A stretch of DNA of 47,865 nucleotides from Shigella phage Henu10. Where the stretch lies: sequence record OQ791282; one strand, 5' to 3'. Positions 1,310 through 1,964 of the stretch are shown in pieces (position 1 is the stretch's first letter; each line of letters begins with the position of its first letter). The notes beneath the pieces are model-generated. The model did no database searches and was not told where the DNA came from. It was given only the letters and a program-made list of their open reading frames with translations. The position numbers were made by a program, and so were the translations under genes.

Positions 1310-1605
1310 ATGGTTATTATTTCAAAAGCCCCACTAAAGAGGTATCTAAATGACCGACCTGACCATAGAGCATAGAGGTTTGGCGTTGGTATCTCGTTGT
1401 AAAAGATGCTGATTGGTCTAATTTCGCAGAAATGAAGCAGTCTTTTAATAGTGTAGACAGTGTAGGCAATGGTCTATTTGTCTTTAATATAAAGGGCAAC
1501 CATTGTCGTATTGTTGCTAGGGTTATTTTTGGAGCAAGAACCGTATTTGTAAAATTTGTGGGTACACACGCTGAATATGACAAACTAAACTTTAAAAAGT
1601 TATGA
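1310..1605 (+). pseudogene. higB: HigB-family (RelE-like) toxin gene disrupted by a frameshift
   Basis: ATG 1310 gives MVIISKAPLKRYLNDRPDHRA then stop at 1373; homology resumes in another frame (from 1369): IEVWRWYLVVKDADWSNFAEMKQSF...FVFNIKGNHCRIVARVIFGARTVFVKFVGTHAEYDKL, matching the HigB hallmark FNIKGN..R.I....VF..F.GTHAEYDK; stop overlaps higA start (ATGA). Confidence 0.55.
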
Positions 1606-1964
1606 AAATAAACACTAAAAAAGACTATCAACGCTACTTGCAAGAGGTAGACGAATTGATGAAAAAAGGAGAGGAACTTCTGACTTCTACAGAACTTAAC
1701 CGTATTAGTGTTTTGTCTTCTGCTTTGGAGGAGTACGAAGATGCTTTTTATCCCATTGCACAACCTAAAACTCTTCCCGAAATGGTAGAGCTTAGATTGT
1801 TTGAGAAAAAGATGTCTCAAACCGATTTTGCAAAAGTTTCTGGAATAAGCCTTTCCAAAGTGAACCAAATTATAAAGGGAAATCGTAAGGTAGATATTCC
1901 TTTTGCTAAAGCGGTTTACCAAGTATTGGATATTCCTGCTGATTTTGTACTGTCTCATTCTTAA
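1602..1964 (+). CDS. higA: HigA-family antitoxin (XRE-type HTH)
   Basis: 120 aa; C-terminal HTH MSQTDFAKVSGISLSKVNQIIKGNRKVDIPFAKAV; translationally coupled to the higB-like reading frame upstream. Confidence 0.65.
   Translation: MKINTKKDYQRYLQEVDELMKKGEELLTSTELNRISVLSSALEEYEDAFYPIAQPKTLPEMVELRLFEKKMSQTDFAKVSGISLSKVNQIIKGNRKVDIPFAKAVYQVLDIPADFVLSHS

Follow-up and report, generated by a model that had tools for sequence, protein, structure and literature searches.

Among described toxin-antitoxin (TA) systems, the HigB-HigA pair of Escherichia coli K-12 (YgjN/YgjM; structures 5IFG, 6KML and 5YCL) is encoded by a toxin-first operon in which the stop codon of the toxin gene overlaps the start codon of the antitoxin gene, and temperate phages carry small autonomous TA units of their own as morons. 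The decay of TA units usually begins with the toxin, leaving a toxin pseudogene beside an orphan antitoxin; phages also encode antitoxin mimics, for example Dmd of phage T4, and a phage antitoxin could in principle disarm a host toxin. HigB- and HigA-like components are further found in PD-lambda-2, an experimentally validated three-gene abortive-infection system whose third gene is required (Vassallo et al. 2022, PMC9519451), and, as a matter of gene arrangement, long antisense overlapping genes have been described in Pseudomonas aeruginosa (PMC8850804) and in enterohaemorrhagic E. coli (EHEC; PMC9927249). Here we describe a higBA cassette in the tail module of a phage sequence of 47,865 nucleotides (nt) (record OQ791282, named Shigella phage Henu10; "the window" below is this whole stretch), where it occupies about 1254-1966 on the + strand and is flanked by two tail genes that both lie on the - strand. 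The phage is a member of the RAP44 group, temperate siphophages that infect the duck pathogen Riemerella anatipestifer (PMC12169736), and the first 44,128 nt of the window are 100% identical to Riemerella phage vB_RanS_PT15 (ON933637.1). Our overall reading, to which we assign a probability of about 0.75, is that the locus is an E. coli K-12-type HigBA cassette, that its toxin gene carries a young but real null allele, and that the cassette is constrained by the opposite (late) strand.

Like its E. coli counterpart, the cassette is a toxin-first operon with a stop/start overlap and a toxin of about 97-104 residues that shares fold and Pfam family; unlike it, the cassette is phage-borne, lies antisense within a tail operon, has a frameshifted toxin gene and faces a stop-free opposite strand. 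The toxin gene is broken in the manner set out in the preliminary description of this DNA, which had reported a HigB-like frame beginning at 1310 and stopping after 21 codons, HigB homology continuing in another frame from about 1369, and an ATGA coupling to an intact HigA-like gene. The 5' fragment of higB (1310-1375, + strand; translation MVIISKAPLKRYLNDRPDHRA) comprises 21 codons followed by TAG at 1373-1375, and in the alignment with E. coli K-12 HigB (5IFG/5YCL, residues 3-91, E 2e-6) its residues cover the N-terminus. The 3' part (1369-1605, + strand) lies in the +2 frame, which is open from 1369 for 78 codons to a TGA at 1603-1605; its translation begins SIEVWRWYLVVKDADWSNF (SIEVWRWY...) and ends GTHAEYDKLNFKKL, and the stop overlaps the ATG at 1602 of the 120-codon higA frame. 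Against Pfam PF09907 (HigB_toxin, cut-off 27 bits), the 78 residues of the downstream frame score 100.5 bits, a 57-residue open reading frame (ORF) within it 75.6 bits, and the two frames joined 99.7 bits, the alignment to the HigB family that the preliminary description had suggested as a check; the protein also matches phrog_5734 (E 3e-37), while NCBIfam returned no family for HigB. The HigA translation carries a helix-turn-helix (HTH) domain that is likewise above its cut-off (HTH_3, below).

The lesion itself is small. A tandem CATAGAG CATAGAG occupies 1364-1370 and 1371-1377 on the + strand, as had been noticed earlier, and the proposal that a 2-nt deletion within it would restore the frame proved exact: removal of the AG at 1367-1368 (equivalently 1369-1370) yields precisely the intact 97-codon higB of Riemerella phage RAP44. 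Relative to that gene, the change is from CATAG.CATAGAG to CATAGAG.CATAGAG, that is, an insertion of two base pairs (bp). In an alignment of nine phages, the intact 97-codon gene is present in RAP44, CRP2, CRP34 and CRP6, and the two extra bases are present in the window, PT15, PT03, PT33 and CRP12 (at the lesion, GACCAT--AGCATAGAG in the intact form vs GACCATAGAGCATAGAG in the insertion form). A duplication of the whole 7-nt CATAGAG unit was considered as the lesion and rejected, since removing 7 nt leaves the frame broken and the alignment difference is 2 nt. Over the entire 713-nt cassette, the AG is the sole difference between the window and RAP44. No single uninterrupted higB frame exists in the window, and higB is there a pseudogene of the PF09907 family.

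An extra dinucleotide in a short repeat invites the suspicion of a sequencing or assembly error over a higB that is in truth intact, and the preliminary description had named this possibility. Indels in short repeats are a common class of error, and the records of PT03, PT15 and PT33, which are identical here, come from one laboratory. However, the site is not a homopolymer, and the allele recurs in CRP12, a member of a separate CRP series in which CRP2, CRP6 and CRP34 read intact. Typing of 36 loci distinguished two intact alleles, A (CATAGCATAGAG at the lesion site) and B (CATAGTATAGAG, plus one Val-to-Ile change), and placed the AG insertion invariably on the A-type cassette. Besides the four phages PT03, PT15, PT33 and CRP12, carriers of the AG allele include two complete chromosomes of R. 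anatipestifer (CP088073.1 and CP031845.1), the draft QEWX01000005.1 and no fewer than seven assemblies built from independent sequencing read runs. The allele occurs against at least three flank haplotypes, and tape measure genes of two lengths accompany it. Most copies share the flank haplotype of the window, including a C at 1125 where intact alleles mostly have T, and two (L028 and L032) lie on other flanks with a 1492-residue tape measure protein. With the same insertion in unrelated assemblies from several sources and on differing flank haplotypes, an error is effectively refuted, and we consider its probability negligible; the AG allele is a real polymorphism that circulates in R. anatipestifer phages and prophages.

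A second suggestion of the preliminary description, that the break might be a site of programmed recoding, fares little better. On this view, full-length HigB would be made at a regulated low level, by ribosomal frameshifting of -1 (or +2) or by slippage of transcription within 1369-1375; a -1 shift would join the two frames, and the permissive window falls in the tandem 7-nt repeat just before the stop. Against this, there is no X XXY YYZ heptamer and no run of five or more A or T residues in 1310-1400, tRNA re-pairing at AGA-GCA-TAG would be poor, and the related phages, most prophages and the diverged cassettes L037 and L039 all read higB in a single frame, the shifted form being a fresh 2-bp insertion. 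Recoding is thus very improbable. The AG form of higB is best regarded as a naturally segregating toxin-null allele, the toxin being presumably inactive, and with no other substitution in the cassette the mutation is evolutionarily young.

What the broken gene might still make can be judged from a structure model, which was built on an intact natural allele (P0001, 99% identical to the restored window sequence) instead of the broken gene. The P0001 model (predicted local distance difference test score, pLDDT, 92.6) has the order b1, a1, a2, a3, b2-b5 and a C-terminal helix, and superposes on E. coli HigB 5IFG_A with a template modelling (TM) score of 0.84, a root-mean-square deviation (rmsd) of 1.6 A and E 5e-7 at 29% identity; the RelE-like fold is thus found in the model of an intact sister allele. 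Mapped onto it, the 21-residue peptide would span b1, a1 and the start of a2. The sole canonical start in the downstream frame is the ATG at 1432, which opens the 57-residue ORF (1432-1605) lacking b1, a1 and a2, and this fragment would be inactive because helices that pack on the sheet are lost. The GenBank record of PT03 annotates the 57-residue fragment as 'HigB family toxin'.

The antitoxin gene higA (1602-1964, + strand) is intact and encodes 120 residues; an exact-protein look-up placed this protein on 122 contigs. Its product matches PF01381 (HTH_3) over residues 63-115 at 31.3 bits (cut-off 23), phrog_1373 (E 1e-26) and the PD-Lambda-2_B model. An AlphaFold2 (AF2) model (pLDDT 91) comprises helices at 6-21 and 29-49 followed by a five-helix HTH, an N-terminal helical part plus a C-terminal HTH that may correspond to the architecture of E. 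coli K-12 HigA; full-length Foldseek alignments were to E. coli K-12 HigA only (6KMQ_B, 6KML_B, 6JQ4 and 5YCL_A) and were weak (E about 0.04, TM 0.43, rmsd 7-11 A). Searches of the PDB with the HigA sequence, alone or as a nine-sequence profile, gave generic HTH matches and did not reach E. coli HigA, and phmmer found no match between the window HigA and E. coli HigA. Against the NCBIfam model TIGR02607 (antidote_HigA), the protein scores 15.5 bits, below the cut-off of 47.7, and it is not of the short P. vulgaris/TIGR02607 type. HigA homologues (P0122-P0128) and HigB homologues occur together on contigs of matching length, and the pairing recurs in L037, L038-L041 and L042.

The same proteins are recognizable in two other settings. 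HigB matches PD-Lambda-2_A over its full length (E 8.5e-29), and the stretch of PD-Lambda-2_B to which HigA aligns is its HigA-like N-terminus (positions 7-119 of 402, E 4e-18; PADLOC); the PF09907 toxin family is thereby shown to be able to act in abortive infection. Unlike PD-lambda-2, the window cassette is without the C-terminal peptidase domain of the B component and without the third gene. Membership in PD-lambda-2 was rejected, there being only two genes, bounded directly by the tape measure stop (at 2 nt) and the next tail gene, and no peptidase domain. By tblastn, PF09907-type HigB relatives (44% identity over residues 27-96) were found in the immunity regions of many Shiga toxin (Stx) 1a-converting phages, e.g. 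phage H-19B, and also in Bacteroides phage BS-TP2. No feature is annotated beneath the matches in the Stx-converting phages. As a small autonomous TA unit in a temperate phage, the cassette resembles TA morons in general; unlike the Stx-phage HigB ORFs, which lie in early or immunity regions, it sits at a coupled late tail-gene junction and its antisense strand is open.

Upstream of higB, the putative control region (1254-1309, + strand) contains a TTTCA-N5-TGAAA palindrome at 1275-1289, a degenerate copy 20 nt away at 1254-1272, and a Bacteroidetes-type -7 box (a match to TAnnTTTG, TACATTTG) at 1298-1305, which ends 4 nt before the higB ATG. The TAnnTTTG motif as such is about as frequent across the genome as chance would give; the diverged cassettes L039 and L037 keep the box, its spacing from the ATG and the palindrome, and the region is identical in the AG allele. 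This suggests an autonomous promoter with a HigA operator, possibly giving a leaderless mRNA, from which higBA would be transcribed against the tail genes. A sigma-70 promoter scan was uninformative, given a Bacteroidetes host, and an Rfam scan of 900-2300 gave one match at chance level only. In the AG allele, insertion after codon 19 stops higB translation at codon 22 and leaves as products the 21-residue peptide and, at best, the 57-residue C-terminal piece. Repression of the cassette promoter by HigA presumably persists.

An intact antitoxin beside a dead toxin raises the question whether HigA is itself the selected product, neutralizing HigB-type toxins of the host or its prophages as an anti-defence factor, or serving as a regulator, with the costly toxin discarded. 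In favour of such a role, R. anatipestifer genomes commonly carry intact HigB of this family, alleles A and B being on 50 and 54 contigs, respectively. HigB-like proteins belong, moreover, to the validated PD-lambda-2 defence (PMC9519451), the null allele is found on several backgrounds, and the control region is unchanged. However, intact higA is not evidence of selection, because the AG mutation is too young: no other substitution has accompanied it, and the intactness of higA needs no selective explanation. The R. anatipestifer HigB copies from the exact look-up all lie in the same prophage cassette beside their own HigA, and among the subset of carrying contigs considered no separate host target was found. 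Moreover, higA in the AG allele would have no translated ORF ahead of it with which to couple, and HigA output would if anything be lower; the late-strand frame described below independently forbids higA indels. We therefore regard selection of HigA for its own sake as unlikely. As in TA decay and among orphan antitoxins, the toxin was lost first and the antitoxin remains; unlike orphan antitoxins or T4 Dmd, this antitoxin has had no time to decay, has no separate host target identified and is subject to an additional opposite-strand constraint. The preliminary description's picture of a decayed toxin with a retained antitoxin is thus supported as to the toxin, with the caveat that nothing besides the 2-bp insertion has changed and that intact higA is not yet evidence of anti-defence selection.

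The new and unusual part of the finding, which the preliminary description had not noted, is a conserved, stop-free ORF on the late strand that runs across the cassette. In the window, this ORF comprises 217 codons (1317-1970, - strand); it begins with an ATG that overlaps the stop of the tape measure gene (ATGA) and stops 37 nt short of the ATG at 1280 of the next tail gene. RAP44 has 228 codons, with the TAA 1 nt before the ATG of the 152-residue form of that gene, and the equivalent ORFs have 229 codons in L039 and 234 in L037, the frame being open down to 68% identity in HigB. These lineages are near saturation at synonymous sites, 40-59% of conserved residues having different codons between lineages, similar to the flanking genes. 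Among 149 HigB+HigA loci surveyed from bacterial genomes and IMG/VR, seven have a stop-free antisense frame and all seven are tape-measure-junction cassettes; the other 142 have at least two antisense stops in every frame (median 6). One HigBA locus (L063), with a convergent long ORF and no open antisense frame, was considered as a counter-example and set aside, the ORF resembling, by eye and with no family search, a chromosomal penicillin-binding-protein-type gene and not a tail operon. Parts of the late-strand frame have surfaced in annotation: the PT15, PT03 and PT33 records carry a 50-residue 'hypothetical protein' at 1317-1469 (- strand), an internal piece of the 217-codon ORF, and gene callers on two chromosomes (L018 and L024) called a 99-residue piece of it.

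The codons of the antitoxin appear to bear the mark of this arrangement. The late-strand frame is in codon register with higA and out of register with higB, and over the three lineages TTA/CTA leucine codons account for 0 of 37 in higA and 14 of 18 in higB (Fisher 7e-10); higA is also without TCA. Each of 51 AT-rich control higA genes has at least three such stop-generating codons. When synonymous codons were resampled with each phage's own usage, the probability of no stop was about 3e-6, 1.6e-3 and 3e-6 for the three lineages, and with the family's own AT-rich codon frequencies it was roughly 1e-4 per lineage (hand arithmetic). Avoidance of HigB cleavage sites in higA mRNA was set aside as the cause of the missing TTA, CTA and TCA codons, since chromosomal homologues use such codons. 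Codon choice in the antitoxin is seemingly shaped by the opposite strand, and the late-strand frame would not survive an indel or a TTA, CTA or TCA codon in higA, so that the cassette would be dual-constrained. Under what is an optimistic null, stop depletion thus exceeds expectation and is conserved across diverged relatives, as would be looked for in an antisense gene or a translational bridge.

The site itself is polymorphic. In RAP44-like phages, the junction between the tape measure gene and the gp14 homologue is empty, holds a 104-nt insert or holds the higBA cassette (1254-1966 in the window; the junction lies at 1936-1939 in L010 and at 1950-2057 in L011). In CRP5 the site is empty, and the next gene begins with an ATG that overlaps the stop of the tape measure gene. 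In PJN03 a 35-codon ORF, joined to its neighbours on either side by ATGA, runs through the 104-nt insert, which is probably present also in PJX6, PJL1, GRAP2, GDF21, PJA1, PJR4, PJO17 and CRP19. The late strand is thereby chained in all three occupancy states, by ATGA overlaps in CRP5 and PJN03 and by a 1-nt stop-start gap at the cassette exit in RAP44. The cassette is found at the same junction and in the same orientation in a Riemerella columbipharyngis prophage (HigB 68% and HigA 69% identical) and in further contigs (81/88% identity for HigB/HigA), and a homologue at 63% belongs to an ordinary TA pair in a chromosome, flanked by thrS and rnhB. Because junction and orientation are kept in diverged lineages and the GC content of the cassette (34.5%) matches that of the genome (35.1%), higBA is, as judged from these comparisons, a long-standing resident of the RAP44-like lineage and not a recent arrival. 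Two papers on RAP44-like phages make no mention of HigB, HigA or toxin-antitoxin systems.

Like the antisense genes of P. aeruginosa and EHEC, this is a long ORF antisense to annotated genes with stop depletion beyond expectation; unlike them, it spans two genes plus their control region, is delimited by a late-gene stop and a late-gene start, and has alternative inserts at its site that are also bridged. From the bridging of alternative inserts and the delimitation of the ORF by late genes, we infer that translation itself, and not its product, is selected. The most likely reason would be that ribosomes keep translating across the insert and that the downstream tail genes are thereby expressed, through coupling or avoidance of polarity. 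No terminator-like sites were found on either strand of 800-2400, and no - strand -7 box was found inside the cassette. The AG insertion, which truncates HigB after 21 of 97 codons, falls at about codon 201 of the 228 of the late-strand ORF (the last 12%), where it replaces only the final residues and shortens the frame from 228 to 217 codons; this placement near the 3' end may explain why a toxin-null mutation is tolerated and has spread. The late-strand frame also offers a reason for intact higA that has nothing to do with an antitoxin.

The leading alternative is that the late-strand ORF is a functional, overprinted protein, a new tail-module or accessory protein instead of merely a track for ribosomes. 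The length and position of the ORF are conserved, synonymous divergence of higA (0.39-0.43) is lower than that of the flanking genes (0.54-0.65), as could result from amino-acid constraint on the opposite strand, and long antisense overlapping genes are on record in bacteria (PMC8850804, PMC9927249). However, the product matches no Pfam or PHROG family, its composition resembles that of the antisense translation of an AT-rich gene, and between lineages the antisense proteins are less alike (52-67% identity) than the sense proteins (68-88%). The AG allele replaces and shortens the C-terminus in viable phages, and phages with an empty site or a 35-codon insert manage without the ORF. We hold such a protein to be rather unlikely, if less so than any other alternative weighed here.

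The open frame might instead be a by-product of local codon-usage heterogeneity or of chance, with the cassette an ordinary moron, and several points weigh in favour of this or against our overall reading. The observation is post hoc, and the P-values of the three lineages are not independent, given their shared ancestry. The null of uniform codon usage is optimistic, because an unconserved antisense stretch of comparable length occurs in the same genome: a + strand stretch of 207-210 stop-free codons at about 2108-2737 (ORF 2114-2737) lies antisense to, and in register with, the tape measure 3' region, where 1 of the 14 leucine codons within codons 1201-1350 is TTA/CTA. That stretch is kept in window-type tape measure genes (also in L019 and CRP6) and not in CRP34, L018, L022, L037 or L038. 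Four GC-richer control higA genes are likewise without in-register antisense stops. Tight coupling is not found throughout, the L039 ORF stopping 125 nt short of the next tail gene, and the AG allele, with its 37-nt gap, is still carried by plaque-forming phages. On the side of the toxin, the 57-residue fragment retains 12 of 16 invariant HigB residues, which leaves residual activity formally conceivable, and the flank haplotypes fit equally a cassette that moves by recombination (a single origin of the AG allele) and an AG insertion that recurs at the CATAG quasi-repeat. Chance is nonetheless improbable as the source of the open frame. The frame is open in three diverged junction lineages and in 0 of the 142 other loci, among controls that are AT-rich every higA has its three or more stops, and within the cassette TTA/CTA codons are used freely in higB and never in higA. 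The start of the ORF coincides precisely with the stop of the tape measure gene, in RAP44 a single nucleotide separates its end from the next gene, and the alternative 104-nt insert at the same site is also bridged by an ATGA-coupled ORF.

Returning to the idea of a late strand that is selected for being translated, a more far-reaching form of the proposal can be put forward tentatively, at somewhat short of even odds. The removal of stops from its antisense strand would be the sole reason why the cassette can persist in a chained tail operon, ribosomes crossing it from the tape measure gene to the next tail gene. Dual coding would then lock the cassette in place, such that the toxin could be lost only near its 5' end, where the AG insertion is situated, and higA would be kept for the sake of tail expression instead of its antitoxin function. 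Which sites in late operons can receive a moron would then depend on how well the antisense strand of the insert can be read as a coding frame.

The genes around the cassette are as follows. The tape measure protein gene (1967-6148, - strand; 1393 residues; PF20155 TMP_3 at 105.8 bits, together with annotations) is convergent with higA, the two stops being 2 nt apart, and the tail-module gene on the other side, the homologue of RAP44 gp14 (phrog_10156, E 5e-57), occupies 822-1253 (143 residues, ATG 1253) or 822-1280 (152 residues, ATG 1280) on the - strand; the placement of the cassette on the strand opposite to the tail genes, between the tape measure and distal tail genes, is thus as first described. 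From window position 2159 onward, the tape measure gene changes abruptly, in its 3' part, to highly divergent sequence in L014 (CRP34), L018, L022 and L026, with more than 200 differences in about 620 nt plus indels. The higBA cassettes there are identical or almost identical, which suggests that recombination had a breakpoint some 200 nt away from the cassette. Another group of + strand genes occupies 6149-9454, separating the tape measure gene from the - strand tail genes upstream of it, and comprises an immunoglobulin-like protein (6335-7027), ORFs at 7183-8016 and 8340-8732, and an antirepressor (8735-9454), all on the + strand; the antisense strand of this block is not open. The - strand carries a TAAATTTG box at 6170-6177, placed 22 nt ahead of the start codon of the tape measure gene, and from it the tape measure gene may initiate a late transcript of its own.

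As regards the record as a whole, an integrase gene is located at 38229-39545, and positions 1-127 and 47739-47865 are identical; the window represents one complete circular phage contig (47,738 unique bases) with a 127-nt end overlap that is typical of an assembler run at k=127. The PT03 record begins exactly 127 nt later than the window. The PT15 record covers only window positions 1-44128, with the gene for a 1452-residue tail protein (43114-47472) and the gene that crosses the window end entered as partial 'misc_feature', and this public record looks truncated.

By itself, the frameshifted toxin is nothing out of the ordinary: a known phage carries a young null allele in a gene of a common TA family. 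It nevertheless means that RAP44-like phages, which are under development against a duck pathogen, circulate in toxin-plus and toxin-minus forms, and these constitute a natural isogenic pair for the function of HigBA in prophages, be it prophage retention or superinfection exclusion. If the proposed late-strand constraint is true, it would show how phages fit counter-oriented cargo into tightly coupled structural operons, and it would explain why certain routes of decay of such cargo occur and others do not. It would also mean that an intact antitoxin beside a dead toxin need not imply a useful antitoxin.

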